The notes under the pieces: generated by a model
Database searches by the model: none
Told to the model about the DNA's origin: nothing
What the model saw: the letters and a program-made list of their open reading frames with translations, nothing else
Shown: piece after piece, positions 46,175 through 62,721 of the stretch
Layout: each line of letters starts with the position of its first letter
How positions within the stretch are numbered: position 1 is the stretch's first letter
Virus record (IMG/VR): IMGVR_UViG_3300022074_000021
Coordinates: 12,333 to 76,332 of that record
DNA from: a virus
Length of the DNA stretch: 64,000 nucleotides
Reading direction: 5' to 3' (one strand)
Position numbers and translations under genes: made by a program

Positions 46175-46235
46175 ATCATTATTTATGTCAAAGGTAGTTG
46201 ATTAATAGGAACTTCATTATAATATATTTGTAATA

Positions 46236-46934
46236 ATGAACGCTCCCATAACATTTAGAGAAAAAGATCATACTTATACTCACAATGAAACTGGTGAGAG
46301 GTTTACATCTGTCACAACATTACTAGGTAAATATAAAAAGCCTTTTGATTCTGACGGTGCTGCAACACGAGTAGCAAAACGAGAAGGCGTTACGAAAGAA
46401 ATGATTCTCGAAATGTGGGAGAAAGAAAAGAATAGAGCCTGTGATAGAGGTACAGAAATTCATAAGCTTTTAGAAGATTATATTACGTTTGGAGATGAAG
46501 CAGATAATTGGGGCTGGTTATATAAAAGTTATGACAAGTCGCGGGAATGGAATATAGATAAATTTGATAGAGTATTGTGTGAGCAGTTAGTATGGAGTGA
46601 AGATTTTAAAGTATCTGGGCTTGCTGATCTAATCTATGAACATAAAGATGGTACGTTTACGGTTGGGGATTTCAAGACTAATAAGAGGTATAGATTTGGA
46701 TCAGATTTTGGAGAGTGGATGCTTGAACCTTTAGATCATTTATCAGTATGTGAACATTCTACGTATACTATGCAACTATCACTATATGCATATCTATACG
46801 AACAAATGACGGGTAAAAAATGTCGTAAGCTTGTTATATATTATTTAAACAAAGATAAGTTTGTAGCCTATCATGGTAATTATATGAAAGCTGAAGTAAA
46901 AGAATTGCTAAAACACTTTTTTTACAATGGTTAA
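46236..46934 (+). CDS. PD-(D/E)XK exonuclease
   Basis: HTY...SVTTLL...RGTEIH...SGLADLI...GDFKT...YTMQLSLY. Confidence 0.8.
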   Translation: MNAPITFREKDHTYTHNETGERFTSVTTLLGKYKKPFDSDGAATRVAKREGVTKEMILEMWEKEKNRACDRGTEIHKLLEDYITFGDEADNWGWLYKSYDKSREWNIDKFDRVLCEQLVWSEDFKVSGLADLIYEHKDGTFTVGDFKTNKRYRFGSDFGEWMLEPLDHLSVCEHSTYTMQLSLYAYLYEQMTGKKCRKLVIYYLNKDKFVAYHGNYMKAEVKELLKHFFYNG

Positions 46935-46967
46935 TTAAAAGTTATTAAATAAATAGCTTTTATACCC

Positions 46968-47171
46968 ATGAAGAAGACGACAATCATTTTTAAACTAGAA
47001 AAATGTATAGATAGATCTTTAGAAGCATTGTATGATGCACGTGATCTTTTAGAAGAGGCAGAAGATATAGAACTAGATCAATTAATAAACGACGTTGTTG
47101 AAGAGTTAGAATGTGATATTGCTGATAAGATTGAAACTATCCGTGAAAGAATAGATAAAATATTTGAATAA
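46968..47171 (+). CDS. Small acidic hypothetical protein
   Basis: ORF track. Confidence 0.55.
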   Translation: MKKTTIIFKLEKCIDRSLEALYDARDLLEEAEDIELDQLINDVVEELECDIADKIETIRERIDKIFE

Positions 47172-48025
47172 TGAGAAAAAAAGTACTTATATTAGGTAGA
47201 GGTTATGTGGGTGACTATATATTAGCTAATATGGCAAAAAATCCTGTAATTGATATTGATGTCTATTCTAAGGCAGAATATGATTACACAGATGAATATT
47301 ACCTACGTGATCTAATCCAAGAGCATCGTTATAATTATCTAATTAATGCTCAAGGCTTTACAGGTCGACCAAACGTCGATCAAGCTGAAGCTATGAAAGA
47401 GGATTGTTGGAAGTATAATGTACAAGTACCTTTGATGTTTAGTAGAGTATGTAAAGATTTGAACGTTCAACCTATCCATATTACATCAGGTTGTATATTT
47501 ACGGGTTACGATAAAGCGTGGAGTGAAGCTGATGAGCCAAACTTTGGTGTATTTAACTCTGATGCGTCGTTTTACTCTACTTGTAAACATGCATTCGAAT
47601 CAGTAAACGACTTCGGCATTACTATACGTATTCGTATGCCATTTTGTAATATTCTCCATGATAGATCATACCTAACTAAGATTCATAAGTATGATAATCT
47701 TATTCAAGCAGTTAATTCTAAAACATATATTCCAGAATTAGTAGACTTTATTGAAACTCTTGTAGAAGACGGTCGTACAGGTACCGATACAATTCACTTC
47801 TGTAACCCGGAGCCTCTCTCTACATCAGATGTTGTTGATATTATGAGAGGGTTTGAATTAGAAAATCTAAATTGGTCATGGGTAGATATTGAAGATCTTA
47901 ACCTTGCAGCTGGTCGTTCAAACTGCACTCTCGATACAACAAAAGTTAAGGAAGAATATGGATATACTTTATCAACAGAACGAGAAGCGTTACAAAAGAG
48001 CTTAGCTGCTATTACAGCTGCTTGA
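47171..48025 (+). CDS. NDP-4-keto-6-deoxy-sugar epimerase/reductase (RmlD-like, NRS/ER type)
   Basis: LILGRGYVG, GFTGRPNVD, SGCIF, FYSTCK, IRIRMP, RSNCTLD. Confidence 0.8.
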   Translation: MRKKVLILGRGYVGDYILANMAKNPVIDIDVYSKAEYDYTDEYYLRDLIQEHRYNYLINAQGFTGRPNVDQAEAMKEDCWKYNVQVPLMFSRVCKDLNVQPIHITSGCIFTGYDKAWSEADEPNFGVFNSDASFYSTCKHAFESVNDFGITIRIRMPFCNILHDRSYLTKIHKYDNLIQAVNSKTYIPELVDFIETLVEDGRTGTDTIHFCNPEPLSTSDVVDIMRGFELENLNWSWVDIEDLNLAAGRSNCTLDTTKVKEEYGYTLSTEREALQKSLAAITAA

Positions 48026-48041
48026 TTAAATAAGTATGTAG

Positions 48042-49565
48042 ATGAGCTTTAATATTTTCGAGAATACTAATCTTGATTTCGATGTGTCGTTAATCAAGAT
48101 GTCACGTACCCGAGATGAAAATAAAACTCTTAAAGATGTAATTGAGAGTACTACACCTATTGAACCTGCTGCAGTACTTAGTTTGGATTTACGTGAATCA
48201 TCTTTGGGGATGGGATTTGTCGGTAGCATTACTATAAATAATAAATTTAAAATATTAGATAATTTAGATATTACTACTAATAGTCCTCATGAGGTTTACA
48301 TTGCAATTAAAATAACAGATCTTGATTTGCAACAGATTGCTGATATACCAGCAGAAGATAAGTGTATCACATTGATCGGATTTATTAATAATACATCGTC
48401 TGGAGCAATTAATATTATTGATACGGTAGTTGTATTTGAATTTGAAGAAGCTTTTATAGCTGCTTTAAAACAAACACAAACCTTGCGTAATTTTTTTAAT
48501 GAAGACAATATTGATGTTATATCTCTTGCAAATAAATTTAATCGACAACTATTTAAATTAGGAAACGAAGATGAAGATATAGTTACGGCCGACTCTGTTA
48601 CACCTAATATAAAGCATAATATTAAAACTGCTTTCAATAATCATGACGGTAATGATCCTAGCGTGTATGATGCAATGCAAGAAATGCTGAAAGAAACAAC
48701 AGCCGGCGAGGTTGTATACGATAAACCAGGCCGGGTCTCCTTTTTTAGGTTTGTTAATCGTCTTTCTGATTTTGAAGATGATAATAGTGAGGTTATTAGA
48801 CAATTGCAGTTTGGACCATTTCTATCAGATAGACATTTACAATTTGTTAGATCAGTTTTAGAAAACAATCTTGATGGTGATTATAGTGATGTATATACAG
48901 AAAAATTTACACTAGGTCCTTTAGCCGAAGCATCCGATGATCCTAGTACAAATTTATACAATAACATTGAATCCTATAATATTAGCCGTGCTAACACTGG
49001 TGAACTAAAAGAGACAATATGGGGAGATTATCGTTTAGATAAAATTATTCCTGGTCAGGACCTATCTATCCCTTCTCCCACTACAAAACGTTTTTCAAAA
49101 ATACAAAAAGACTTTATTAAAATTAATTTACCGGATTTGCCAGTAGGGTTAAATTTACCAGTTTTTATAGATGGAGAGTTAAAAGATTTTCATATAGACT
49201 TTAATGCTACTTCCAGTAATGATGATGTAGACCGGTCTAGAATTCAAAATCAAAACAAAATAGCCAACTTAGTACATAAAAGCTTTTTAACTATAGTAGA
49301 GACAATTACATTTAAGGTCAAAGGTAGTGTAATTAGACGTCCTAATACATTTATTTGGATTGAAAATGGTAAAGAAGAAGAACCATATAAAAAGCTGTGG
49401 TATGTAAATAGTGTCGAACATGTTTTTGCTAGTGGAAAATATACTACAAGCATAGTAGCAACTAAAATATTTGGAAATGTTACGCTAAACGATTTTGGAG
49501 TTAGTCTTGGTGAGATACCATTAGGAGGGACTGATGGTCGACCCGACCGCACCGGTGAGGCTTAA
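48042..49565 (+). CDS. Baseplate hub gp27-like protein
   Basis: C-terminal ITFKVKG...RRP..FI...WYVNSVEHVF..GKYTTSIVATK; TTAAATA upstream. Confidence 0.55.
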   Translation: MSFNIFENTNLDFDVSLIKMSRTRDENKTLKDVIESTTPIEPAAVLSLDLRESSLGMGFVGSITINNKFKILDNLDITTNSPHEVYIAIKITDLDLQQIADIPAEDKCITLIGFINNTSSGAINIIDTVVVFEFEEAFIAALKQTQTLRNFFNEDNIDVISLANKFNRQLFKLGNEDEDIVTADSVTPNIKHNIKTAFNNHDGNDPSVYDAMQEMLKETTAGEVVYDKPGRVSFFRFVNRLSDFEDDNSEVIRQLQFGPFLSDRHLQFVRSVLENNLDGDYSDVYTEKFTLGPLAEASDDPSTNLYNNIESYNISRANTGELKETIWGDYRLDKIIPGQDLSIPSPTTKRFSKIQKDFIKINLPDLPVGLNLPVFIDGELKDFHIDFNATSSNDDVDRSRIQNQNKIANLVHKSFLTIVETITFKVKGSVIRRPNTFIWIENGKEEEPYKKLWYVNSVEHVFASGKYTTSIVATKIFGNVTLNDFGVSLGEIPLGGTDGRPDRTGEA

Positions 49566-49603
49566 TAGTTGATTATTTTATATACCTACATTAATATAAA
49601 CGT

Positions 49604-50173
49604 ATGCATAACCAAGTAGTAGACTCCCATAAGAGTACTGTCTATAAGAAGCTTAAGGCACAAAGTCCTTTAGATGTAGTCGCTTTTACTGCAGGTAACT
49701 TTGATATTATTCACCCTGGTTATACAGCTACGTTTGAAGAGGCTAAAAGACATTGTGATAAGTTCATAGTATTCTTGCATGGTGATCCTTCTGCTACTCG
49801 TAATACAAAATATAGGCCAGTAGTACCATACTACGACCGTTATAAGATGCTCATGTCTATTAAGCATATTGATGAAGTCTATATGTACCAGACAGAAAAA
49901 GAACTTTTAGAGCTTATGAAGACTTTTGATCTTGATGTCCGTATTTTAGGAGAAGATTATCTTGGTAAACCTTTTACTGGTGATGACTTAGACCATGAAG
50001 TTATATATACAACGAGATCACATGAATGGTCTACAACTAAGTTTAAGAATCGTATTGCAGCTATGACTATGATTCAGAATGAGAAGCTACGCAATAGGGT
50101 GTTAGCTCTACTTAACGATGAGGATGCATCAGATGATATACTTAAAGGTGACTTTACAGAATTAGAGAAATGA
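49604..50173 (+). CDS. Cytidylyltransferase-like protein (TagD family)
   Basis: AGNFDIIHPGY, ILGEDY.GKPFTG, RSHEWSTT. Confidence 0.85.
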   Translation: MHNQVVDSHKSTVYKKLKAQSPLDVVAFTAGNFDIIHPGYTATFEEAKRHCDKFIVFLHGDPSATRNTKYRPVVPYYDRYKMLMSIKHIDEVYMYQTEKELLELMKTFDLDVRILGEDYLGKPFTGDDLDHEVIYTTRSHEWSTTKFKNRIAAMTMIQNEKLRNRVLALLNDEDASDDILKGDFTELEK

Positions 50174-51114
50174 AAGAACAATATAATTACCTCGTAACTG
50201 GAGGTGCAGGATTTATTGGCTCACATGTAATCGATGAGCTGCTTAAGCGAGATGACATTTATAGGATATATGTTATTGATAAGCTAGGTATGGGTTCTGA
50301 TATGGATAACGTGGCCGATGATAACCGCGTTAAGTTTATTTTTGAAGATATTGCAAGTGAAATAGCATATGAATATCTTCCCCGGGTTGATTATATTTTA
50401 CATCTAGCTGCTGAGTCACATGTTGATCGATCTATTACCGATCCTCTTGCATGTATAACTAGTAACGTAATGGGTACTGCAAAAGTCTTAGATTTAGCCA
50501 GTACAGATCAGGCAAGACTAGTTCATGTATCTACAGATGAAGTTTATGGTCATCTTCAAATAGATGAACCTCCGTTTACAGAAGAGACTGCATTAGCTCC
50601 TCGTAGCCCTTATTCTGCTACCAAGGCCGGATCGGATCTATTAGTACAGTCATACATTACAACCTATGGTATCAATGCATCAATTACCCGTTGCTGTAAC
50701 AACTATGGTCCAAGGCAAGCTTGTGAGAAGCTTATACCTACAGTAATTGATAAGCTAGTTAAAGATGAGCCTATTCCTATCTATGGTAATGGCCAGAATA
50801 TTCGGGAGTGGATTCATGTTACTGATCATGCTAAAGCTATCATTGAGGTGTTGCATACTGGTCATACTGATACTGTATACAATATTCCGGGTAGCCTCCA
50901 TTTAACTAATCTCGAGATGGTCGATAAGATCATTGAAAAAGTTCTCGAGTTTAAATCAGAGATCAACCCATCAATTGAGTTTGTAGAAGATCGTGCAGGT
51001 CATGATTTTAAATACTCTATAAGTACAAAACACTCTTTAAACTCAGTTAGAGAGCAAAGAGACTTTGATTTAACTGATACAATAGAATATTATTTAAAAA
51101 AACTAGTTGATTAA
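50170..51114 (+). CDS. rmlB: dTDP-glucose 4,6-dehydratase
   Basis: VTGGAGFIGS, HLAAESHVDRSI, VSTDEVYG, PYSATKA, NNYGPRQ..EKLIP, DRAGHD. Confidence 0.92.
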   Translation: MKEQYNYLVTGGAGFIGSHVIDELLKRDDIYRIYVIDKLGMGSDMDNVADDNRVKFIFEDIASEIAYEYLPRVDYILHLAAESHVDRSITDPLACITSNVMGTAKVLDLASTDQARLVHVSTDEVYGHLQIDEPPFTEETALAPRSPYSATKAGSDLLVQSYITTYGINASITRCCNNYGPRQACEKLIPTVIDKLVKDEPIPIYGNGQNIREWIHVTDHAKAIIEVLHTGHTDTVYNIPGSLHLTNLEMVDKIIEKVLEFKSEINPSIEFVEDRAGHDFKYSISTKHSLNSVREQRDFDLTDTIEYYLKKLVD

Positions 51115-51144
51115 AAAATAAACGTAGATAAAATATAATATATT

Positions 51145-51333
51145 ATGGGTAAGAAGACATTTCCACGTAAACCTTTTAGGTTCGGTAAATTTATTATCGA
51201 ATATAAAGAGTGTCCAAAGAGCCCGGTTCATTTCTTGAAGGAAGAAATAAATACAGCGGCAGAAGCAGAGAGTGTAGCCAACCGGTTAAAACAGCAAGGA
51301 TACGATAAGGTATTAATTAAGCAGGTAGGTTAA
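51145..51333 (+). CDS. Hypothetical protein
   Basis: ORF track; TTGATT...TAAAAT sigma70-like promoter upstream. Confidence 0.55.
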   Translation: MGKKTFPRKPFRFGKFIIEYKECPKSPVHFLKEEINTAAEAESVANRLKQQGYDKVLIKQVG

Positions 51334-51617
51334 TGATTAATGGCAGTGATTTAGAAAATATGACCTGTATACACCGGAAGCATTTTAGCGATATCGGTCT
51401 ACCAAAAGAAGGTACAATAGTTAGTATATACTACAAATATGATAAGAGTTATAATCAGTTGCTTATAAATGATTATTCAATACAATTAGTAGTAGATGGA
51501 AGAGTTGGTAATAATGTAGCAGATAAAAATAATATTATATCTAGTGAAGTTTACGATTTTTTTTTTAAAACAACTTATATGGAATTACTTAAACACGTTT
51601 TAACACAAATAAAATAA
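51333..51617 (+). CDS. Hypothetical protein
   Basis: ORF track; TAATG coupling. Confidence 0.5.
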   Translation: MINGSDLENMTCIHRKHFSDIGLPKEGTIVSIYYKYDKSYNQLLINDYSIQLVVDGRVGNNVADKNNIISSEVYDFFFKTTYMELLKHVLTQIK

Positions 51618-51620
51618 ATA

Positions 51621-51800
51621 ATGGAAGCAAATATTAATAACTTTCTATTTAAATTAGATAGAAAAAATAATACTATTGAAATATACTTTGGTTCTGAAGC
51701 TGAAAGATTATATGGCTTTATTAAAGTCAAACCAAATATATCTGAAAAGGAGTTTCATTTTGAAATCTCTGATTGGTTTATTAATAATGCAAATGGTTAA
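51621..51800 (+). CDS. Hypothetical protein (59 aa, MEANINNFLFK...)
   Basis: Manual translation; fills the intergenic gap. Confidence 0.5.
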   Translation: MEANINNFLFKLDRKNNTIEIYFGSEAERLYGFIKVKPNISEKEFHFEISDWFINNANG

Positions 51801-51834
51801 TTGCATTTAACCGTTTAGCGTATAAAATATACAT

Positions 51835-52299
51835 ATGAAACCAATATGCCTTATTATTGCATTAGCCGTAGTGTCCATTGTAGTATCATTAGTAGTTAAA
51901 AAAGAGCCAGTTTTTACTGGTAAAGAATATAATGGAGAATTAATTAATGCTAATTTATTTGAAAATCCGGTTACATTTACTGATCATGATGGTAATTTGG
52001 TAGATGGTTATGCAGTAAGATATTATCCAGGTACAGAGCAGGTATATTCCAAAGCTAGTTTTAAAGATGGATTTATGCATGGCCCGTTTCTTTCTTTTTG
52101 GGATAATGGTCAAGTACAGATGACGATGGTTTGGGAAAACGGTACACATTACAAAAAAATGAGCTCCTGGGATCGGAATGGTAAGCGTTTGAAAGGCTCT
52201 GCTGATGACCAAATTAAACAGATTAGAAATATGGATAAAGATTTAGGAGAGAAAATGGATGAATTGGAAAAGACTAAATTAGAACTTAGTATCTATTAA
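51835..52299 (+). CDS. Membrane-anchored MORN-variant repeat protein
   Basis: N-terminal TM segment; YYPG...FKDGFMHGPFLSFWDNGQ. Confidence 0.65.
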   Translation: MKPICLIIALAVVSIVVSLVVKKEPVFTGKEYNGELINANLFENPVTFTDHDGNLVDGYAVRYYPGTEQVYSKASFKDGFMHGPFLSFWDNGQVQMTMVWENGTHYKKMSSWDRNGKRLKGSADDQIKQIRNMDKDLGEKMDELEKTKLELSIY

Positions 52300-52340
52300 T
52301 TAGTTTACTCTAATAGGAACTCTGATATAATAATGGAGTA

Positions 52341-52592
52341 ATGAAGATAGTATATTGTGAATGTGGAAGTCTGGTTAGACCTGCGCGGGTAGAAGCTGGC
52401 TTTACTAACTGTATTAGGTGCGCTAATGAGAATCCTGTTGAACCTCCGAAAGGTCGTATGGTATATACTGGTAAGGTCGGGGCTGAGATAGAGATTATGT
52501 CTGCTGAGACTTGGCGTGAGAATAAAGGTTACTTTATACCTAAAGGTGGTCGTAGCTGTGTTAAAAACTTTAGTAAAAATGTCTGCGCGTAA
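52341..52592 (+). CDS. DksA/TraR-like C4 zinc-finger protein
   Basis: CECG.....ARVEAG...CIRCA. Confidence 0.55.
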   Translation: MKIVYCECGSLVRPARVEAGFTNCIRCANENPVEPPKGRMVYTGKVGAEIEIMSAETWRENKGYFIPKGGRSCVKNFSKNVCA

Positions 52593-52839
52593 ACATAAAC
52601 AAAACCAGGCTCGTAGAATGGCGCAAGGTCATTATACGAAAGATGCATTTTTCTTTATTCAAGACTTGCATGAATGTTTAATGATGAATAAAGTTGAAGA
52701 GTTTTCTCAGACCGATGCGCGATATGCTCAACGTTTATTAGAAGAGTTAGATGAAATAAGACCAGCTCTTCAAAAGCTAGCTAATAATCATTCAGCTAAT
52801 ATGCCTGAAGAATTTATTACTAACTGGAAAGATCTTTAA
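52579..52839 (+). CDS. Hypothetical protein
   Basis: ORF track (likely start MSARKHK). Confidence 0.5.
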   Translation: MSARKHKQNQARRMAQGHYTKDAFFFIQDLHECLMMNKVEEFSQTDARYAQRLLEELDEIRPALQKLANNHSANMPEEFITNWKDL

Positions 52840-52861
52840 GGAACTCCGATATAATAATAGT

Positions 52862-53131
52862 ATGAACCCAACAAGAGAAGATCTAATTGAGCTTGGCTAT
52901 CTTAAACCTGGTGATAAGTACTGTAAGATTCCTAAACGTATACGTAAGATCTTTCTTACAGAGAGTGATCTAGAGTATGCTAAGCGTCATGGACTTACTC
53001 GTCAAGAGATGAAAGATTTTAAAGAAGAAATGATGATTGAAGATGAAATTATTCAAGATCATCATATGCTAGCAGCTAAAGACAAAGAAGATAACTTTAA
53101 TTCACCTCAAGCGCATTACTTTGCATGGTAA
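52862..53131 (+). CDS. Hypothetical early protein
   Basis: Preceded by the AGGAACT-N4-TATAAT promoter. Confidence 0.6.
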   Translation: MNPTREDLIELGYLKPGDKYCKIPKRIRKIFLTESDLEYAKRHGLTRQEMKDFKEEMMIEDEIIQDHHMLAAKDKEDNFNSPQAHYFAW

Positions 53132-53472
53132 TAAAATCCTTTAATAAAAAAACAGGTAAGCGTTATGGTGATTGCGCGCCTAGGTATAGTAAATCTTGGG
53201 AGCTTCATCAAGACGGAGAGGTATTTATTTTAAAAGTAGATGGAGAGCCAGAAGAAATACTAGAATTAACTGAACGCTCATTGTATTATTTTATTACAAA
53301 GAAAGGTAAGAAAACGATGCAGTTGCTTGAAAGTAAACAGTTTAGGAATTGGCAATATACTTTATGGCATTCGGGTGATGTATGGGACTATGCACCCTAT
53401 CTAACTAAGTTAGAGCGAGATATGCTGACATATGGAAATGCTCAATGGAGCTTATTAGATAATTTAGATTAA
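53125..53472 (+). CDS. Hypothetical protein
   Basis: ORF track. Confidence 0.55.
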   Translation: MVIKSFNKKTGKRYGDCAPRYSKSWELHQDGEVFILKVDGEPEEILELTERSLYYFITKKGKKTMQLLESKQFRNWQYTLWHSGDVWDYAPYLTKLERDMLTYGNAQWSLLDNLD

Positions 53473-53787
53473 ATGAGTACAAAATGGCACGGTGGTAAAG
53501 GTGATAAAAGTAGAATCACAAAATACGAGAGATACGCAGATAATTACGATAATATTTTTATCAATAAGGCAGTAGCTACACATGATATATGGGGTATAAT
53601 CGGTCATGTTGATATTATAGAAGGGGATACAGTTTCCTTTAAATGTATTGATACAGAGGTAAGAGTTGAAGTAATTGCAGAGGCTCCCGATAAGTACGGT
53701 GAAGCTAGCGGTAACGCAGGAAACCCTTTTCATGTATCGCGTGATATATTTGAAAAAAAATATAAACCTTATTTAAAAACTCTTTAA
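53473..53787 (+). CDS. Hypothetical protein (WHGGKGDKSR...Y.DNYDNIF N-terminus)
   Basis: ORF track. Confidence 0.55.
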   Translation: MSTKWHGGKGDKSRITKYERYADNYDNIFINKAVATHDIWGIIGHVDIIEGDTVSFKCIDTEVRVEVIAEAPDKYGEASGNAGNPFHVSRDIFEKKYKPYLKTL

Positions 53788-53799
53788 TGTACAACAAAT

Positions 53800-54054
53800 A
53801 TGGAGATGATGGTTATAGGATTTGCTATTGCAATTATATTAGTAACTGCAATACCATATATATTATGGAAGATTATATCTATACTACCTAATCTACTATG
53901 GGTATGTTCAAAAGTTGCAACGTTTATAATTATATTTGGAGCTATTGTATTTTGTATTAGTTGGTTAAGCTATATAGAGGGTACAAAACTTAATAATAAA
54001 ACTGAATATGCTCCTAAAAAACCTATTATTGAAAACATAAATGAAAAAAAATAA
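53800..54054 (+). CDS. Small membrane protein
   Basis: Two hydrophobic segments. Confidence 0.5.
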   Translation: MEMMVIGFAIAIILVTAIPYILWKIISILPNLLWVCSKVATFIIIFGAIVFCISWLSYIEGTKLNNKTEYAPKKPIIENINEKK

Positions 54055-54204
54055 AACAACAAACGCATCTTTGGGTCGTGATTATTTCTTAAATGCATTA
54101 CCTAATGATTTGGATAAAAAGCAAGCAGTACGTAAAGATGTAACTGTAGATGAAAATACACTAAAAGAGCTTCAAGCTCTAGGATTAATTAACAAACCTA
54201 AATA

Positions 54205-54456
54205 ATGTTTAAACATATTAAAGAAATGCTAGAAAGTGGGCAAGTGATACATGTAGAATTCACTAAAAAGAATGGCGAAACACGTAAAATGAACTGCACG
54301 ACTAATCTCAATCTAATTCCAGAGTGTATGCACCCATCTGAAGATCGAATGAGCTACATAAAAGAAGATGTAATTAGAGCATATGATATTGATGTTCACG
54401 GGTGGCGATCATTTAGAGTAGATTCTGTAAATATTCTTGAGTCAAAGGAACTCTGA
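54205..54456 (+). CDS. WYL_2/SH3-like phage protein
   Basis: VEFTKKNGETRKMNCT...YDIDVHGWRSFRVDSV. Confidence 0.75.
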   Translation: MFKHIKEMLESGQVIHVEFTKKNGETRKMNCTTNLNLIPECMHPSEDRMSYIKEDVIRAYDIDVHGWRSFRVDSVNILESKEL

Positions 54457-54467
54457 TATAATTAGGT

Positions 54468-54726
54468 ATGCAAAAGAAAGAAGAAATTCCAGAAGAGGTT
54501 ATCAACTACTGTATTGAAAATAAGGTAAGTATTGTAGAAGGTCTCCAAGTAATTGCTGAACGTAAAATACAAAGTTTGGAAGATGATATCGCTACTCTTA
54601 AAAAGAATGCGCTTGATAATATTTTCTCGTTGAAGAAAGCTATTTCCTCAGTAGATAAGCTTAGTAAAGAAGATATGGATGATGTTGAGTCGTTTCTTGA
54701 TTTTTTAGATAAAAATGTTCAGACTA

Positions 54727-54734
<8 letters not shown>
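54468..54734 (+). CDS. Hypothetical early protein
   Basis: AGGAACT-N4-TATAAT promoter upstream. Confidence 0.55.
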
Positions 54735-55361
<627 letters not shown>

Positions 55362-55381
<20 letters not shown>

Positions 55382-55736
55382 GACAGCAATTATGATTGCT
55401 GCACTGACACTCACTGCTAACGCAAGTGACCATCACGATGAGAAAAAAGGTCCTAAAGGTAAACCTGCAAAGGTTGACGGTAAGCGCAAGCTTCCGCCTG
55501 ATATGGCCAAGTTCGATAAGAATAAAGATGGAAAACTATGTGAAGTTGAACGTAAAGCTGCACGGGATGCTTTTATAAAGAGGTTCGATAAGAACAAAGA
55601 TGGTAAGCTTGACGAGAAGGAGCGTAACGCTGCTAGAGCTGAACGTCGCAAGAGTTTAAAAAAACCTAAAGGTAAAGGTAAACAACCTAAAGGACCTAAA
55701 GGTAAAGGTAAGCCTGAGCAGAAGAAAGGTAAGTAA
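55362..55736 (+). CDS. Secreted EF-hand protein, Lys-rich tail
   Basis: Signal peptide; two KFDKNKDGKL..ERxAAR EF-hand-like repeats. Confidence 0.75.
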
Positions 55737-55997
55737 ATGAACAAAGACCTGAGTACGTCTAAAAACTACTCCTTTTTTAATACTGTGAAAGGATTCAATC
55801 AGATCCACGTGATAGCAAAAGATAGAGGGTTCAAATATGAGAAGATAGCCGATACACCTGATTTTAATGGTGAGAGTGCTGCCTTAAAATATTGGGAAGC
55901 TAATAAAGAACGACTTATTGATACAAATTTTTATAATGATAAGATCGTTATTGTTAGAAAAGAAATACATAATACATGCATAAAGAGGTTAAATTAG
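55737..55997 (+). CDS. Hypothetical protein
   Basis: ORF track. Confidence 0.5.
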   Translation: MNKDLSTSKNYSFFNTVKGFNQIHVIAKDRGFKYEKIADTPDFNGESAALKYWEANKERLIDTNFYNDKIVIVRKEIHNTCIKRLN

Positions 55998-56139
55998 ATA
56001 AACTCGATAGAGTTATCTATACTAAAACTGTTGAAGAAGGATTTATTTGTGAGCATTGGTATGAGTATACCGATACTGGTGAACAAATTCTTGTAAAAGT
56101 ATTTGAAGAATCAATACCTATAGATTATATCGAGCATAT

Positions 56140-56625
56140 TTAAAATAAGTATTTAAGAATAAGTTCTTCTTCTGTGAGAATTTTTTCACCTTCATCTTCC
56201 TGTACAGAGTCAAAACCTTCTTCATACTCTTCATAATAAGAATAAATATCATCCGCATCTGCCTCATAACTAAATGAGGATGATCCCTTTGAGGTTTGTA
56301 TAACTTCATACTTATCTTTAATACCTGCTACTATTAATTGTTTAAGCAATTTTGGACCAGTTTCTTTATCAGCCCGAGCTATAAAATCTTTAACTTGATT
56401 ACTAGTAAATTTACCTTTAAGAGTTAAAATAGGGTCATCATAAAGCCCCCAAACATGTATAGCCAGATATTGTCTTGTAATATCTGCACAATCTCTTATA
56501 ACATAATATGCAGATTTTTTCTTTACTTCTATACCAGTATCAGGTTTTTTATGAGCTCTTTCTGCAGGACCGTAAAGCTTAGCTATTTGCTCCTTGCTAT
56601 TATCTAAGATTACATCTTCAAACAT
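56140..56625 (-). CDS. Hypothetical late protein
   Basis: CTAAATA 6 nt upstream; the only clear minus-strand gene in the early array. Confidence 0.6.
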   Translation of the reverse strand: MFEDVILDNSKEQIAKLYGPAERAHKKPDTGIEVKKKSAYYVIRDCADITRQYLAIHVWGLYDDPILTLKGKFTSNQVKDFIARADKETGPKLLKQLIVAGIKDKYEVIQTSKGSSSFSYEADADDIYSYYEEYEEGFDSVQEDEGEKILTEEELILKYLF

Positions 56626-56691
56626 ACATATATTTAGTCTCTCCCGTAAAATTAATGGATATCCATAAGGAACTTCAATATAATTAGGTTG

Positions 56692-57144
56692 ATGATATTA
56701 TTAGACCCGTCTCCTAGCATCAAAAAGCATACGAAGATTGACTTTAATCTTCTTAGTCAACTACTTACTACTTTACTTGAATCCAATCATAAACGAGATA
56801 TCAATATTGTAGCGAAGATTCATAAGAGTAGAATCGCCGGTACATCGCTATGTACTCATGTAGATGGCTGTAGATTCTTGATTAACTTAGACGTCTCAAA
56901 TATTAAGAGACGCTACATATTCAGTTCTATTTTGCATGAGTTGCGACATTGTGTACAGAAGAATCTATTCGGGTATTGGCCTGATACTCACGCTATGAAG
57001 ACTTGGAAGGATTACTGGTATTCAAAAGAAGAGATAGATGCTCGTAAGATGGAGAAGCTTACAACACAGATGATTAAAGCATATGACTCGATGATTAACA
57101 TGGGTGTTCAGTTCAAGAAGTATAATCTAAACAAGATCGGATAA
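56692..57144 (+). CDS. Putative zinc metallopeptidase
   Basis: ILHELRHCVQ plus downstream EIDAR. Confidence 0.65.
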   Translation: MILLDPSPSIKKHTKIDFNLLSQLLTTLLESNHKRDINIVAKIHKSRIAGTSLCTHVDGCRFLINLDVSNIKRRYIFSSILHELRHCVQKNLFGYWPDTHAMKTWKDYWYSKEEIDARKMEKLTTQMIKAYDSMINMGVQFKKYNLNKIG

Positions 57145-57461
57145 GGAACCTCAGTATAATAAGAGTATGAAACAAGAAGATAGACAGTTTTTCGAAAATG
57201 TAGTTTTTGGATGTGTAATTATCCTCATACTAGTTCTAGTAGCTATATCAATTTTACCTAAATAAACAAATGCCTGAACCAGTTGAATCAAAAAGCAATA
57301 AACATTTCCGAATATCGTTAGTTAAATCATTCTTACGAATAGTTGGATGTGCTGCAGCATTAACTCCATTAGGAACTAACGAATCAATCATAGCTCTAGC
57401 CGTATCATTCCTCGCAGCTGAGATATTAGGAATTTTTGAGGAACTCTAATATAATATAAAT

Positions 57462-57665
57462 ATGAAGTACGACATTGTATTCAAGACAAAAGAAGCATTC
57501 AACGCAGCTAAAACCCTTCTCACTCATCATTATGCTTGCCGTTTCAATGATCTTAATGATTATAGAATTGAATTTTATCTAGAGGGTAGGCGTGAGACGG
57601 CTAAAAAAATGCTACAAGATGTAAATGCTGTTGAAGAAGTTAACATGAAGTTTGTAACTACTTAA
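57462..57665 (+). CDS. Hypothetical early protein
   Basis: AGGAACT-N4-TATAAT promoter upstream. Confidence 0.55.
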   Translation: MKYDIVFKTKEAFNAAKTLLTHHYACRFNDLNDYRIEFYLEGRRETAKKMLQDVNAVEEVNMKFVTT

Positions 57666-57684
57666 GGAATTTTAGTATAATAAT

Positions 57685-58095
57685 ATGAACAATACCATTA
57701 AACATTTAGACAACGGTGATTTCGAAGTGATAAAAAACACTCCATCTGCTGAAACTCTTGAATCAGGGAAGCCTAGATTCAATAAAGATGATAAGGCGGC
57801 AAAGAAGTTGTTTACGGATGTTCAGCTAGCCTACGAAACTCTTATCTTAGCTAAAGTGGAAGCTGCTCCTGCATTTGGGTTATCTACTCCTCAAGCAATT
57901 CAGAAAGCTGATGCCGCTTATGAAGAGTATGATGAGTTAGTTGACATTGTGGTTAAGGCTACAGGCGGAAATGCTCCAGCCTTTTTTACTGACCCACAAA
58001 CAGTTGATCTATTTGAGATTGCAGGTACTGATTGTCGAGGCATGACATATAATGAGATGGCTGAACTAGAAGGCTCTATTGCTTTTGGAAATTAA
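57685..58095 (+). CDS. Hypothetical early protein
   Basis: Variant AGGAATT-N4-TATAAT promoter upstream. Confidence 0.6.
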   Translation: MNNTIKHLDNGDFEVIKNTPSAETLESGKPRFNKDDKAAKKLFTDVQLAYETLILAKVEAAPAFGLSTPQAIQKADAAYEEYDELVDIVVKATGGNAPAFFTDPQTVDLFEIAGTDCRGMTYNEMAELEGSIAFGN

Positions 58096-58221
58096 ATTAA
58101 TATGAAACTAAATATAATACTACCACTAATAATTATTGCAATAGTGTTAATCTTAACCGGTTGCACATGAAGTACATGTTAGATCCTCAGTGGGGATAAG
58201 GAACTCTGATATAATTAAAGT

Positions 58222-58407
58222 ATGAAAAGGGATAAGTACTTAGTAATCGTAAGCTTTAAAGGACGTGTTGAGCGTATTGTTGTAGAAGCTACCTCTAGAC
58301 CAGATGCTGAGAATGTTGTTTATGAGAAGAAAAAGCATTTGTTTGATCATGATGTTATTCACGGTACTAGCACGATTAGTATTATGTCTTCTCGTAGAAT
58401 GTCTTAA
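58222..58407 (+). CDS. Hypothetical early protein
   Basis: Promoter motif upstream. Confidence 0.55.
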   Translation: MKRDKYLVIVSFKGRVERIVVEATSRPDAENVVYEKKKHLFDHDVIHGTSTISIMSSRRMS

Positions 58408-58551
58408 TTGCTTGATACTTAAAGGAACTAATATATAATATAATTATGAACATCGAAAAGCTAAAGGATAAATTAATTGTACTATGGATTATAACAGTTT
58501 CTCTATATATAGGGGTAGATTTACTTCAAAAATTTAACTAAAATTAACATT

Positions 58552-58612
58552 GGGGGTGACATTGGGTTCGACGTAAAAAATACGGATGAGGGTTCAAATC
58601 CCTCCACCTCCA
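58552..58612 (+). ncRNA. Minimal tmRNA-like RNA (tRNA-like domain only)
   Basis: GGGGGUG/CACCUCC-A acceptor with G3:U70 and A73; unpaired D-like ACAUUGGGUUCGAC; CGUA-AAAAA-UACG hairpin; GGAU linker; T-arm GAGGG-UUCAAAU-CCCUC. Confidence 0.75.
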
Positions 58613-58974
58613 TTAATAAATACTAATATGGCATTTGAACATTTACATCTTGATAATTTAGGTAGAATTATCTACAAAATCGCTAGATCATTCGGTTATA
58701 CAGAAGAGTGGTGGTTTTCCTACGATGGCCAGAGCAACAGAACAATCGAAAAATATATTAAAGAGAAAAAGCCATTTTAAAGTGAAAAAACTATTAAAAG
58801 CTTTTAAAAATAAAAAGAATCGTAAAATAGATTACGATCAAGAGCTGGATAGTTTTAGACAAATGGTAATAGATCTTCACCTTAAAATAACTAGGCTAGA
58901 GAAAGAAAATCGTAGATTGAAACGGATTATTAAAAAACTCTCGGAAATATAAGGAACTTCATTATAATAAATAT

Positions 58975-59259
58975 ATGAAAAAAGATATTTACAGAGTTCA
59001 AATTAAGCCTAGCTATTCTGTATATACCAAAAATGGTTCTAATCATAGAATACATGGGCCGGCCTTAACAATTGGTACTGATGAGTATTTTTACATTAAC
59101 GGTAAACGATTAACTTTATCCGGTCACGAGGATTACGTAAGAAGTTATTTTGTTCACCATGAGTGCTTTAGTTTGGAAAAAGAATGTTTTCAAAAAGCTT
59201 TAAATTCTCCTGATGGTATATTTGTTCATAATTTAGAGTTAACTGAAAATGCAAAATGA
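58975..59259 (+). CDS. Hypothetical protein (HRIHGPA...YFYING motif)
   Basis: Promoter motif upstream. Confidence 0.55.
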   Translation: MKKDIYRVQIKPSYSVYTKNGSNHRIHGPALTIGTDEYFYINGKRLTLSGHEDYVRSYFVHHECFSLEKECFQKALNSPDGIFVHNLELTENAK

Positions 59260-59443
59260 TGATCCTTTTGCCCTAGGTTGGTATTTAGAAATTGTGCATT
59301 TAGGAGAAAATTTAATTTCTGAAAGTAAGCACATAGAAGGTCCTTTTTTAACTCAAGCCGATGCTGAACATCGTAAGGAAACAATTCTTACTAAAAATGA
59401 AAATATACACGCAAAGTTAACTATTAATCTTATAATGTTGTAA
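59249..59443 (+). CDS. Hypothetical protein
   Basis: ORF track. Confidence 0.5.
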   Translation: MQNDDPFALGWYLEIVHLGENLISESKHIEGPFLTQADAEHRKETILTKNENIHAKLTINLIML

Positions 59444-59447
59444 TATT

Positions 59448-59756
59448 ATGCTAAAATATAAAAAGAATAGTAAAGTTAGTTGGGTAGATAAATCAGATCG
59501 TATTGCAGAGATAGCCAATCTAGCGGAGTTAATTAAAGATGGTGAAGAAGAGCATCTAGATCATTACAATGATTTAGTACTTAGTTATGCTAAAGACACT
59601 AACATGCAAGCTTCAGCCTCTGAGACTGATCCTATTGCTTGGGATTTATTTTGTGAGTTGGCTGGTGGTGATCCAGGTAAGATAGTTTATGCTGGTGGTA
59701 GGAGAGGTTTAAACTATCTAGAAATGGTTAAATTTAATCGAGGCTATTGGCGATAA
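59448..59756 (+). CDS. Hypothetical protein
   Basis: ORF track. Confidence 0.55.
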   Translation: MLKYKKNSKVSWVDKSDRIAEIANLAELIKDGEEEHLDHYNDLVLSYAKDTNMQASASETDPIAWDLFCELAGGDPGKIVYAGGRRGLNYLEMVKFNRGYWR

Positions 59757-59850
59757 ATAAAAATGGACCCTATACCCACTATCACTCTAGCTGTTGTAAT
59801 TATTGAGCTTGTTATATTGGTATTACTCTTTAGGTCTAATAAATAATTAC

Positions 59851-60087
59851 ATGAAGACCTTACTTATACTATTAGCTTGTTGCTTAATTAGTTGCGAGGG
59901 AGGATATAGCTCATATACGTACCAATCCGTTCCATCAACTACTGTACGCACTTATAGAAGCTACACACCTGCTTATTATTATGCTCCTAGGAGAGTAATT
60001 TATTCTCCACCAATAGTTAGATATCAATATAGAGCACCTCGATATTACAGTGTTACAACAAGAAGTTATAGAAGAAAGTGTCCGTAA
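59851..60087 (+). CDS. Small lipoprotein-like Tyr/Arg/Pro-rich protein
   Basis: MKTLLILLACCLISC lipobox-like sequence; ATAAATA 6 nt upstream. Confidence 0.5.
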   Translation: MKTLLILLACCLISCEGGYSSYTYQSVPSTTVRTYRSYTPAYYYAPRRVIYSPPIVRYQYRAPRYYSVTTRSYRRKCP

Positions 60088-60171
60088 AGATAAGTTTGTA
60101 GTTACACGAGAATACAACCAGATTATTGTTTCCTTAACAACAAACATAAGGAACTTACATATAATAAGAGT

Positions 60172-60369
60172 ATGAAAGAAAAGCTTAAAAAGTTTGTTGA
60201 GACTGGTGAGCATGTGTTTCTCGATATCTGCCCTCGACGAGATAGTGAAATATGGTCAGAAGAAGGAGTTATCAAGAATCTCGATGCTAATGGTTGGTTT
60301 CAGATTGAGTTTATGGGATCTACTAACGGATGGCATGTTAATCAGATCGTAAACATATTAACAGATTGA
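60172..60369 (+). CDS. Hypothetical early protein
   Basis: Promoter motif upstream. Confidence 0.55.
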   Translation: MKEKLKKFVETGEHVFLDICPRRDSEIWSEEGVIKNLDANGWFQIEFMGSTNGWHVNQIVNILTD

Positions 60370-60635
60370 AGTTTTCACCAAATTATGGTGCGTCAAGTGA
60401 GTATATCAAACACGGTTAAGCGATAGAATAAGACGTTAAATAATGAACTATCGTGGGAGTAAGGGTGCCCTCAGAGAAAGACCCTAAATTTTAAGGAACT
60501 TAGATATAATTAGATATGCCCGAAGAACAAGAGATTAGAGATATTGTCGAAGAAATGCTTGATACAGTAGAACGTGAGATTGAGTTTGATGGACGAGGAC
60601 TTTAGGAACTACATTATAATATAGAAACAAAATAT

Positions 60636-60745
60636 GGCCCGGTCATCTAACTGGGAAGACCCACCCGGTAGCAATGCTAGCAAGGCTACAACAAGGCGAC
60701 GGCTAAGTATGGGAGGTAATGCAGGTTCAATACCTGCTCGGGCCT
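60636..60745 (+). ncRNA. tRNA-like RNA with 44-nt insert in place of the anticodon loop
   Basis: Acceptor GGCCCGG/UCGGGCC-U; D-arm AUCU-AACUGGGA-AGAC; stem CACCC/GGGAG; T-arm GCAGG-UUCAAUA-CCUGC; own promoter at 60604-60620. Confidence 0.65.
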
Positions 60746-60855
60746 GCTCTTGGATAGGTTAACACCGAACAACGAGTGCGCCAAAAACTTCGCGCCTACA
60801 AGCCTTTTACGAGGTGGAGTCCAAGTGGGAGTAAAGAACTACGATATAATAAGGT

Positions 60856-61125
60856 ATGAAAGAGAGTAAGTATGTTGTTGTAGCTTATACTAAGACAAAG
60901 ACTAATGTACTCAAAGCTCTTAACCTCTGCATTCATGAAGTAAAGGATGAAGTACAGAACGTATGGGTAGAAAAGGTAGTACCAGTCAATAGAGAGCGTA
61001 AGAATGAGATGGTTAATGGATGGACGCCTGGAACAGTAGAGTTTGATAGTGCATGGCGAGATACAGACCCAAGTGATAGGCCGATAAAATGCATTGTACA
61101 TACAGTAAAAGGAACTCGAATATAA
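60856..61125 (+). CDS. Hypothetical early protein
   Basis: Variant AAGAACT-N4-TATAAT promoter upstream. Confidence 0.55.
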   Translation: MKESKYVVVAYTKTKTNVLKALNLCIHEVKDEVQNVWVEKVVPVNRERKNEMVNGWTPGTVEFDSAWRDTDPSDRPIKCIVHTVKGTRI

Positions 61126-61132
61126 TAATAGT

Positions 61133-61627
61133 ATGAACGATACCGTTGGAAAGAACTATATTGCTGTTAAAGGAAGAGATACTCTTAGAAAGATTGTTGT
61201 TGTATCGCCACGCGTGGTGCTCACAGAATGTGAATACAAAGAGCTGGGCTGGAGATACGAGCTCTGGCCATCTGAGCCATCTGAGACCTGGCTTAACTTC
61301 AGCTATTCTGATGAGCGGTTGAAGGATGTTAATAGCAAGATGCTCTTGATGTCTAACCTTCTACGAGTTCAACTCGAGACAGAGAAGCAAGAGAATGAGA
61401 TGAGACTCAAGGAGATCAATAAGACTCTAGAGCTGATTGCATTAGGTATGGAAGCAGAACAAAACAAATTACTAGGAGTTAGCGAGAACGGCAAGGATCT
61501 CTGTATTAGTTGTGGAGAAGAATCCGATTACAGTTATGATACTCATATAGACTATAGAGTAGGTTATGTTGAGGGTGCAGGACAGTTATGTAAAGCATGT
61601 TACGCTAATGTGGATAAGGAACTCTAA
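61133..61627 (+). CDS. Hypothetical protein with C-terminal C4 zinc-ribbon
   Basis: CISCG...THIDYRVGYVEGAGQLCKAC. Confidence 0.6.
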   Translation: MNDTVGKNYIAVKGRDTLRKIVVVSPRVVLTECEYKELGWRYELWPSEPSETWLNFSYSDERLKDVNSKMLLMSNLLRVQLETEKQENEMRLKEINKTLELIALGMEAEQNKLLGVSENGKDLCISCGEESDYSYDTHIDYRVGYVEGAGQLCKACYANVDKEL

Positions 61628-61638
61628 TATAATTAGGT

Positions 61639-61908
61639 ATGAAAGAGATTGAGAATGATGTTAAGCAGCTAGAAGAAGAAGTAAGCTCTCTTGTTGATAA
61701 GGTTATTGCTCTTAGAGCAGAGCTAGAGTCTCATGAGAGTCTCATTGTTAAGAAAGACCAGCTCATTGCTGAAATTCAGGAAGTGCGTTGGGCTCAAGAC
61801 CAGACCATTGCTGAACTTCATGCATGGAGTAAGAAACTTGAAGAGGATCAAGTTAAGAAGGATAAGACCATTGCAGATCTCCACGGAGTATTAGTAGCAT
61901 CTAAGTAG
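61639..61908 (+). CDS. Coiled-coil hypothetical protein
   Basis: Heptad pattern; promoter motif upstream. Confidence 0.55.
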   Translation: MKEIENDVKQLEEEVSSLVDKVIALRAELESHESLIVKKDQLIAEIQEVRWAQDQTIAELHAWSKKLEEDQVKKDKTIADLHGVLVASK

Positions 61909-62211
61909 AAATAGTATATAATAATACAATGAACGCGCACTTAAAAGCAATTAAGAAAAAACATGAAGCACTTGGAGATATCGCTAGAGCGGATCTAGAA
62001 ACATATCTAAATAATCAAGTAGCTATCGGAGAGCATCCTGATCTGGGAGTAGAAATCGAAAAGAAAGTAGAAACTATTGCCCACCATAATGAAGTTGTTG
62101 AAACGATTGATGACCTTATTGCGGGTCATTAACTTAAGGTAGATTGAAGATAAAGTGAGATTACCTGTTGCAGATCTCCACGGATTATTAGTAGCAGCTA
62201 AGTAGAAATAG
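61871..62211 (+). repeat. 44-bp direct repeats (61871-61914 and 62168-62211) flanking ORF 61929-62132
   Basis: ttgcagatctccacgga(g/t)tattagtagca(t/g)ctaagtagaaatag, 2 mismatches. Confidence 0.9.
61929..62132 (+). CDS. Conserved-type small phage protein (YLNNQVAIGEHPD)
   Basis: ORF track; flanked by 44-bp direct repeats. Confidence 0.6.
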   Translation: MNAHLKAIKKKHEALGDIARADLETYLNNQVAIGEHPDLGVEIEKKVETIAHHNEVVETIDDLIAGH

Positions 62212-62215
62212 AATT

Positions 62216-62476
62216 ATGATTAAGACATATACAAATGAAGCCACTCTATTCGGTGTTATTGCACTTGTAGTAGTATCGTGGCAAGCATGGCTGATTCACT
62301 CACTTACCAGTGTATCGACCATTAGAACACAAGTAGAAGTACAGGAAGAACAAAATTATCATGTTATCGACGCATCATATATCGACCATACAGGTAAGTA
62401 TGATGATTGTGTTGAATATGCAGATAGTTACAAGAATCATCACGAGTATATCGTAGTATCTAGTAAGGAACTTTAA
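62216..62476 (+). CDS. Membrane-anchored hypothetical protein
   Basis: N-terminal TM segment. Confidence 0.5.
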   Translation: MIKTYTNEATLFGVIALVVVSWQAWLIHSLTSVSTIRTQVEVQEEQNYHVIDASYIDHTGKYDDCVEYADSYKNHHEYIVVSSKEL

Positions 62477-62487
62477 TATAATTAGGT

Positions 62488-62700
62488 ATGAAAGAAAGTA
62501 AATGCTACAAGTTGATTAAGCACTATGGCGTGGATCATAATGAAAGCGTAGTAGCGGTATCACATGATACAGAGAAGCTTCATCAGGCTCTAAAGGTAGT
62601 TAATGTTAAAGGGTGGGAGGTCTTATCTGAAAATCAACTCGAATGGGCGCATCAGAAAGAAGGGAACTACTTTGCAATTGCTCCAATCACTTACCTTTAG
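62488..62700 (+). CDS. Hypothetical early protein
   Basis: Promoter motif upstream. Confidence 0.55.
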   Translation: MKESKCYKLIKHYGVDHNESVVAVSHDTEKLHQALKVVNVKGWEVLSENQLEWAHQKEGNYFAIAPITYL

Positions 62701-62721
62701 GAACTCCGATATAATAATAGT

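Follow-up and report, generated by a model that had tools for sequence, protein, structure and literature searches.

The usual view of phage-encoded tRNAs is that they help with codon usage or stand in for host tRNAs that have been cleaved. The tRNA shape is also used as a processing signal in eukaryotic or organellar transcripts, as in mascRNA of the MALAT1 3' module and the t-elements of plant mitochondria. Phage T4 encodes two non-coding stable RNAs, species 1 (rnaC, 139 nt) and species 2 (rnaD, 119 nt), which lie in its tRNA region directly after a tRNA and whose function has been open for about 50 years. Theta ribozymes, minimal HDV-like ribozymes mostly from gut phages, adjoin the 3' ends of phage tRNAs that lack an encoded CCA (Kienbeck et al. 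2024, PMC10879173). Other families are described in a 2023 catalogue of viral structured RNAs (PMC10690425) and in a 2026 preprint on bacterial tRNA mimics. The tRNA-shaped RNA presented here, which we call the mimic, matches no published RNA in the literature searched. It is the 5' half of a bipartite RNA, the other half being a domain fused to its 3' end (the tail), and comparison of homologous sequences establishes this RNA as conserved, with a predicted structure that would neither code nor decode.

The locus lies in a 64,000-nt stretch of DNA (the window) taken from a 76-kb IMG/VR virus record with an estimated completeness of 36%. Encoded here are a tail sheath, a baseplate wedge and a large terminase, all of T4 type, and the nearest cultured relatives are Pelagibacter and Methylophilales myophages and cyanomyophages, to which identity is 34-44% over the C-terminal third of the sheath. 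The phage is an uncultured marine T4-like virus, and the mimic is situated in its early region. The features of the locus are as follows.

60604 to 60620, + strand: promoter-like motif AGGAACT-N4-TATAAT (AGGAACTACATTATAAT)
60627 to 60635, + strand: putative 5' leader (ACAAAAUAU), A-rich, U or C at -1
60636 to 60745, + strand: tRNA-shaped RNA of 110 nt (the mimic), delimited by canonical numbering, ARAGORN, MFE fold and covariation
60636 to 60642 with 60738 to 60744, + strand: acceptor stem, GGCCCGG/UCGGGCC, 7 bp with G7.U66
60645 to 60660, + strand: D-arm, D stem of 3 bp plus an A10.C25 mismatch
60661 to 60716, + strand: extended anticodon-like arm, a 7-pair stem plus a 42-nt insert
60661 to 60667 with 60710 to 60716, + strand: anticodon-like stem, CCACCCG/UGGGAGG, one A.A mismatch
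60668 to 60709, + strand: insert replacing the anticodon loop, 42 nt, two hairpins
60668 to 60689, + strand: hairpin 1 of the insert, with the palindrome UGCUAGCA in its loop (60675 to 60682)
60691 to 60708, + strand: hairpin 2 of the insert, GACG tetraloop
60717 to 60720, + strand: variable region, UAAU, 4 nt
60721 to 60737, + strand: T-arm, GCAGG-UUCAAUA-CCUGC
60745, + strand: discriminator U73
60746 to 60832, + strand: fused 3' domain (the tail), 87 nt, starting at the base after U73
60634 to 60762, + strand: overlapping 42-aa ORF, not a gene, its frame being broken in homologues

A preliminary description of this DNA had reported a tRNA-shaped RNA whose anticodon loop is replaced, and the sequence at 60636-60745 is as claimed. 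Canonical tRNA numbering fits exactly. The 7-bp acceptor stem, a D-arm with G18G19, U8, A14, A21 and a UUCRA T-loop are all present, a Levitt pair between A15 and U48 is possible, and every tertiary-pair position of the body is filled. What a canonical tRNA has and the mimic lacks is an anticodon stem of 5 bp that closes on a loop of 7 nt containing U33 and the anticodon. No CCA is encoded, U73 being the last base. The insert is indeed in the loop position, but its length is 42 nt and not the 44 nt first given, as the earlier count left out a G.U closing pair. Because a structured module occupies the place of the anticodon loop, the mimic would be unable to pair with a codon. Of the annotation scans suggested earlier, Rfam 15 (gathering and E-value thresholds; tRNA model RF00005 included) matches neither mimic nor tail and ARAGORN at default settings makes no call at 60636-60745, whereas at a 90% threshold, and with introns permitted, the same program returns precisely this interval. 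MFE folding yields a cloverleaf whose anticodon arm is branched (z = -2.5; z = -4.9 for a shorter variant, L003), and model R1 scores the window mimic at 117.8 bits. The ends of the mimic pair as an acceptor stem and not as the Ro-binding stem of YrlA-type Y RNAs, and the Rfam Y RNA models do not match it.

Pattern scans for the mimic recovered 7 viral contigs and 21 metagenome contigs, and a scan for the downstream domain alone added 5 viral contigs with a divergent mimic body. With the window included there are 12 distinct mimic sequences, one copy per record, on about 30 contigs. An insert-bearing RNA that recurs to this extent does not fit the case of ordinary tRNA homologues and a unique insertion, and the homologues bear out a non-decoding tRNA shape, as opposed to a group I intron host or a dead gene. 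Beyond these contigs, none of 50,697 phage records gave a homologue of the mimic by megablast or blastn. In the cultured relatives HTVC008M, Mosig and Melnitz, model R1 gave no genuine match, its single hit (11.9 bits) lying inside a baseplate gene, and the exact 24-mer of T-arm plus acceptor is missing from 185,579 bacterial and archaeal genomes.

Among the eight closest sequences the body of the mimic is unchanged. Its changes in five distant copies are compensatory, with G-C replaced by A-U at 2-71, C-G by U-A at 5-68 and A-U by G-C at 51-63, and with G.U, G-C or A-U at 7-66. U73, G18G19 and the UUCRA T-loop are constant in all copies, and unconstrained MFE folding gave the same architecture for the 13 copies folded (12 distinct sequences). 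In an alignment of the 12 sequences, which was fitted to the model and is hence biased toward the structure, 92.7% of cells pair and both sides have changed in 12 of 29 pairs; changes on both sides are seen for 6 of the 7 pairs of the anticodon-like stem. None of 500 shuffles attains these pairing and covariation values, so that the covariation check on phage homologues came out in favour of the structure, and sliding the partner by one column lowers pairing to 51-56%. The first 8 sequences alone were not significant, their covariation score being attained by 63 of 500 shuffles, in an alignment whose L003-type rows are off by one column in the D stem. The genes flanking the mimic differ by about 5% while its body is invariant or compensated. 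From these comparisons the mimic appears to be under clear selection. The invariance of the body may in part reflect a short divergence time, as the 12 distinct sequences come from closely related phages.

The insert is the most variable part of the mimic, and five forms of it, of about 33-60 nt, occur among the relatives.

Window, L004, L008 and L025: window-type form, total 110 nt, two hairpins, insert of 42 nt
L003, L019 and L022: L003-type form, total 102 nt, two hairpins, tightly packed junction
L017, L018 and L024: L017-type form, total 97 nt, one hairpin
L153 (with a sequence of its own) and L154, L156 and L157: long forms, total 122-124 nt, two unrelated hairpins

A GACG-capped hairpin is common to the three shorter forms and carries compensatory changes. 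Many of the apical loops are self-complementary: the loop is UGCUAGCA in the window and GGUACC in L153, and the long forms have UGCA together with AGCU, CCGG or CGCG. No such loop is found in the L003 and L017 forms. One contig, from run X17, has 14 nt (UCUUCUAUAGAAGG) in place of 60660-60717 when aligned with window positions 60625-60749, giving a stem of 4-5 bp with a UAUA loop; it is a single contig with a depth of 2.1 and L154-like flanks. This short arm may be a real deletion, or else reverse transcription or the assembly may have skipped from one UAUA repeat to the other. No short-gap, canonical-length or short UAUA version turned up in scans of viral contigs.

The resemblance to a tRNA-Cys acceptor end, as pointed out previously, holds. 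U73, G1-C72, G2-C71 and C3-G70 of the mimic agree with tRNA-Cys identity as known for the E. coli CysRS. Position 2-71 can be A-U in relatives, and the GCA anticodon is not found at 34-36, the GCA triplets of the inserts lying at non-homologous places. When each prokaryote species was represented by one genome, at least 120 tRNA-sized genes combined the seven acceptor pairs of the mimic with U8, U73 and a UUCRA T-loop. Among the 120 matches listed, 67 are canonical tRNA-Cys(GCA), 51 are Cys-like with GCA in an odd loop and 2 are other genes; 118 of these 120 same-stem genes are thus Cys or Cys-like. The matches listed are mostly from Alphaproteobacteria, Pelagibacterales and SAR116 included, and an alphaproteobacterial host is plausible for the phage on the likeness of these acceptor stems. 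The odd-loop genes (L033, L041, L043, L049, L057, L063 and about 45 others among the matches listed) occur in Bradyrhizobium and other Alphaproteobacteria, have for example a 6-nt GUGCAA loop, and are reported by ARAGORN as tRNA-???. These chromosomal genes may be bacterial non-decoding relatives of tRNA-Cys.

The tail, which the preliminary description had not included, is found once per locus and always directly after U73 of the mimic. Its length is 87 nt in the window and 69-70 nt in relatives, and it is near-invariant in 13 other variants. The tail is predicted to fold as a three-way junction, which its two ends close by pairing: a UGGG bulge separates P1a (GCU/AGU) from the six pairs of P1b, CAAANNCUUC forms the loop of hairpin A, and the loop of hairpin B varies freely. 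Double compensatory changes set the window tail apart, three of them in P1b and a fourth in hairpin A, and the tail of L019 has one such change in hairpin B. A contact between the loop bases CUUC and (A/G)GAG of the junction is conceivable. A helix between the tail and the strand CCCACC of the anticodon stem was considered and is not kept in other forms, and an HDV-like fold was discarded as the required strand order is missing. A search with nhmmer for the tail at the 120 bacterial tRNA-Cys loci among the matches listed found nothing.

The motif AGGAACT-N4-TATAAT occurs 19 times in the window, always on the + strand, against 0.33 expected, at sites that span 46207-62715. TATAAT stands 15 nt from G1 of the mimic and 3-7 nt from the ATG of most protein genes. 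Judged from the latter gap, the early mRNAs of the phage would be leaderless or nearly so. The dedicated promoter described earlier is thus borne out for the window as a motif, but not for the whole family, as the motif is degenerate or missing before 5 of the 12 sequence types (L017/18/24, L022, L154/155 and L156). In those types the RNA would therefore have to be cut from a longer transcript. Every variant keeps the A-rich leader, even those that lack the motif. We infer from these features the transcription start and an RNase P cut at G1 of the mimic. The RNA-library data are assembled contigs over the region, and such contigs give no strand, ends or level.

Further upstream, 60420-60493 (+ strand) is a conserved non-coding stretch with a hairpin CGAUAG...CUAUCG, the sequence UGGGAGUAA, which is the same ending as that of the tail, and a hairpin AGGGU...ACCCU. 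Its counterpart lies directly before the promoter motif of the mimic in L003-L009 and directly upstream of the mimic in L154-L156, in which the motif is degenerate or lost. This stretch may represent a further RNA element, the third at the locus, or a tail copy that has decayed. In the window it is followed by a 110-nt cassette (60494-60603, + strand) made up of a promoter motif and a 29-aa ORF, which is also present in L019, L025, L017 and L157, and is missing in L003-L009 and in a contig of run X19 that joins 60493 to 60604. Pfam scans of 20 neighbouring early proteins gave nothing RNA-related, and a six-frame search of five partial phage records, 17-36% complete, gave no match to a CCA-adding enzyme (PF01743) or CysRS (PF01406). 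As to antisense targets, complementary 9-12-mers in the window are at chance level, and a 10-mer that matches the next gene at its start (60875) is no more than expected.

A second tRNA-like element of the early region is a tmRNA tRNA-like domain without the mRNA-like part (58552-58615, + strand). Within 64 nt it covers positions 1-374 of the Rfam tmRNA model, at 59.5 bits, and its G3.U70 is intact; the Rfam mascRNA model matches this domain only, and weakly. It stands about 2 kb upstream of the mimic in the window and in L004, L006, L008 and L009, and was not found in the parts of L003 and L153-L157 examined. What links the domain to the mimic, in the set of tRNA mimics proposed earlier, is their co-location. 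The further copies are as follows.

L004:3069-3133, L006:10530-10597, L008:10115-10181 and L009:8973-9039: tmRNA tRNA-like domain
L025:3370-3432, - strand: a different copy of the tmRNA tRNA-like domain, CCA encoded

The L025 copy is directly upstream of the small-ORF cassette that precedes the mimic. In L003 a tRNA-Met (5844-5917, + strand) has its 5' acceptor strand, GGGGGUG, and much of its T-arm in common with the tmRNA-like domain of the window.

Several readings would bring the mimic back to a known kind of gene. With its insert in the usual place of a tRNA intron, it could be a tRNA gene with a new protein-removed ('enigmatic') intron, splicing of which would restore a decoding tRNA, perhaps tRNA-Cys; consistent with that, the 5' stem strand of two forms is followed by UAGCAA, which differs by a single base from UUGCAA, the Cys anticodon loop. 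We consider this very unlikely. At 42 nt the insert is too short for a group I intron, as was previously noted, and no Rfam intron model matches it. Nor does any excision leave a canonical loop, again in line with the earlier description: in silico, no anticodon is common to the forms, only 3 of 217 constructs from the window form were called, none of them as Cys, and 0 of 217 from the L017 form. In addition, UAGCAA is missing from the L017 and long forms, the covariation describes a continuous 7-pair stem that leaves no 7-nt loop, and no ligase or endonuclease gene was seen near the mimic. A miniature tmRNA-like rescue RNA, or a translated mini-ORF (AUG CUA GCA ... GGC UAA) giving a tag or peptide, is suggested by a 10-codon frame with a stop (UAA or UGA) at the same place in the window and L003 forms and by the tmRNA domain 2 kb away, and its probability seems to us close to nil. 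The AUG...UAA mini-frame pointed out earlier is real in the window copy and fails in the family: its stop has become CAA in L019 and L022, the L017 and long forms have no start, in-frame GCA resume codon or stop there, and the changes between forms fall on first and second codon positions. The invariant C3-G70 excludes the alanine identity conferred by G3.U70, the D-arm is normal, with a stem, where the tmRNA domain has a stemless D-loop, and the Rfam tmRNA models do not match. Since there is no one excision by which every form would yield an identical mature tRNA, the mimic is read as neither an intron-bearing tRNA nor a mini-tmRNA. The overlapping 42-aa ORF was likewise rejected as a gene, its frame being broken by homologue length differences of 8, 13 and 12-14 nt. 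A decaying tRNA-Cys pseudogene broken by a junk insertion would account for the Cys-type acceptor end and for an insert that resembles a tandem duplication (GUAGCAAU then GCUAGCAAG). However, the body is invariant or compensated in about 30 contigs against the roughly 5% difference of the flanking genes, the insert stems are kept by compensatory changes, and the conserved tail is always attached, which leaves decay an extremely improbable explanation. Finally, the earlier proposal of a decoy for anticodon nucleases or T-box sensors is unlikely, because both read the anticodon loop, which is absent in the mimic and replaced by its least conserved module.

As all that a tRNA needs apart from decoding is kept, and kept under clear selection, the tRNA shape is likely used outside decoding. 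The account that we favour, and think rather probable, is of a non-decoding tRNA-Cys mimic that is matured by host tRNA-processing enzymes and has a tail attached. What selection appears to preserve is what RNase P, RNase Z and the CCA-adding enzyme recognise, and with its conserved acceptor, T-arm and elbow the transcript may be a substrate of these host enzymes. RNase P would cut at G1, a step needed in those family members that lack a promoter of their own, and an RNase Z-type 3' endonuclease, proposed because no CCA is encoded, would cut after U73. The latter cut would give the tail its 5' end and free a tRNA-like RNA that is stable and has no anticodon. The freed mimic would meet only readers of the upper half of tRNA, such as the CCA-adding enzyme, CysRS, EF-Tu and acceptor-end enzymes or toxins, and would act as a competitor or carrier instead of a decoder. 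Given the Cys-type end, which also hints at an alphaproteobacterial host, CysRS is the obvious candidate and a concrete one. If the tail were never removed, the 3' end would be blocked and an acceptor-end role would therefore fall.

Much of the same evidence could be read as that of a processing handle and nothing more, similar to a t-element or mascRNA, in which RNase P and RNase Z cut an early polycistronic transcript. The cuts would define where the upstream mRNA ends (3') and where the tail begins (5'), and the tail would itself be the functional RNA. Conservation peaks in the parts read by these two enzymes (acceptor, T-arm and elbow) and leaves the anticodon arm free, the tail is the most conserved piece and begins at +1 after U73, no CCA is encoded, and several members have no promoter of their own. 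However, a plain tRNA or a short hairpin arm would do for a handle, whereas the inserts keep two compensated hairpins and, in many forms, self-complementary apical loops (UGCA, AGCU, CCGG, CGCG, GGUACC and UGCUAGCA), and U73 and the Cys-type stem are kept though RNase P and RNase Z need neither. A handle alone is accordingly a serious possibility, if an unlikely one. The favoured reading of a host-matured mimic, for its part, leaves the structured, self-complementary loops and the near-invariant tail unexplained. A bolder idea, which we regard as doubtful, is that mimic and tail form a new class of phage effector RNA, in which the mimic, matured by RNase P, RNase Z and the CCA-adding enzyme, would be a Cys-specific acceptor-end decoy or carrier. 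It might be bound and perhaps charged by the host CysRS, or soak up a defence toxin aimed at tRNA 3' ends, its insert loops might dimerise or chain, and the tail might be a new small ribozyme or a protein-docking domain that sets or guards the 3' end.

Compared with known systems, neither the mimic nor the tail belongs with the T4 stable RNAs, the tmRNA domain, mascRNA or the theta ribozymes. Like alphaproteobacterial tRNA-Cys(GCA), the mimic has a short variable region, and its 7-bp acceptor stem, U8 and U73 are identical to theirs; unlike them, it has D-arm, anticodon-arm and T-stem sequences that are unrelated and no 7-nt loop. With the tmRNA tRNA-like domain (RF00023) it shares mimicry of the upper half of tRNA and a closed lower stem, and with the window copy of that domain also the lack of an encoded CCA and the same early region. 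However, the mimic differs in having a full D-arm, C3-G70 instead of G3.U70, and U73, and in lacking the GGNUUCGACG loop. Similar to mascRNA and the t-elements, it is a tRNA shape without a working anticodon beside another functional RNA, a shape that in those cases is read by RNase P and RNase Z, but the mimic stands upstream of its partner, has a complete elbow and a large structured insert, and shows no sequence relation to them. The tail, an uncharacterised RNA domain, occupies precisely the place that theta ribozymes take in gut phages: like them it is a conserved small RNA domain that starts with G right after a CCA-less phage tRNA shape, its G1 being within 1 nt of the tRNA 3' end in all copies. 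In contrast to theta ribozymes, its covariation describes a three-way junction and not a nested double pseudoknot (P1, P1.1, P2, P3, P4) with a catalytic C in J4/2, and no Rfam ribozyme model matches it. Beyond the preliminary description, the present analysis adds the tail fused after U73 and the part of the family without its own promoter motif; new as well are the Cys-type acceptor identity, the series of insert forms, and the failure of intron, tmRNA and HDV-like readings for the family as a whole. Of the T4 RNAs, rnaC resembles the mimic in its tRNA-type T-arm (CCGGG-UUCGAAU-CCCGG) and in paired ends around a large internal domain, whereas its fold has no canonical D-arm or 7-bp acceptor stem, no sequence similarity is seen to either rnaC or rnaD, and in the T4 order the tRNA-like RNA comes last. 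For stable RNAs of this kind, the natural insert variants of the mimic family provide a comparative handle.
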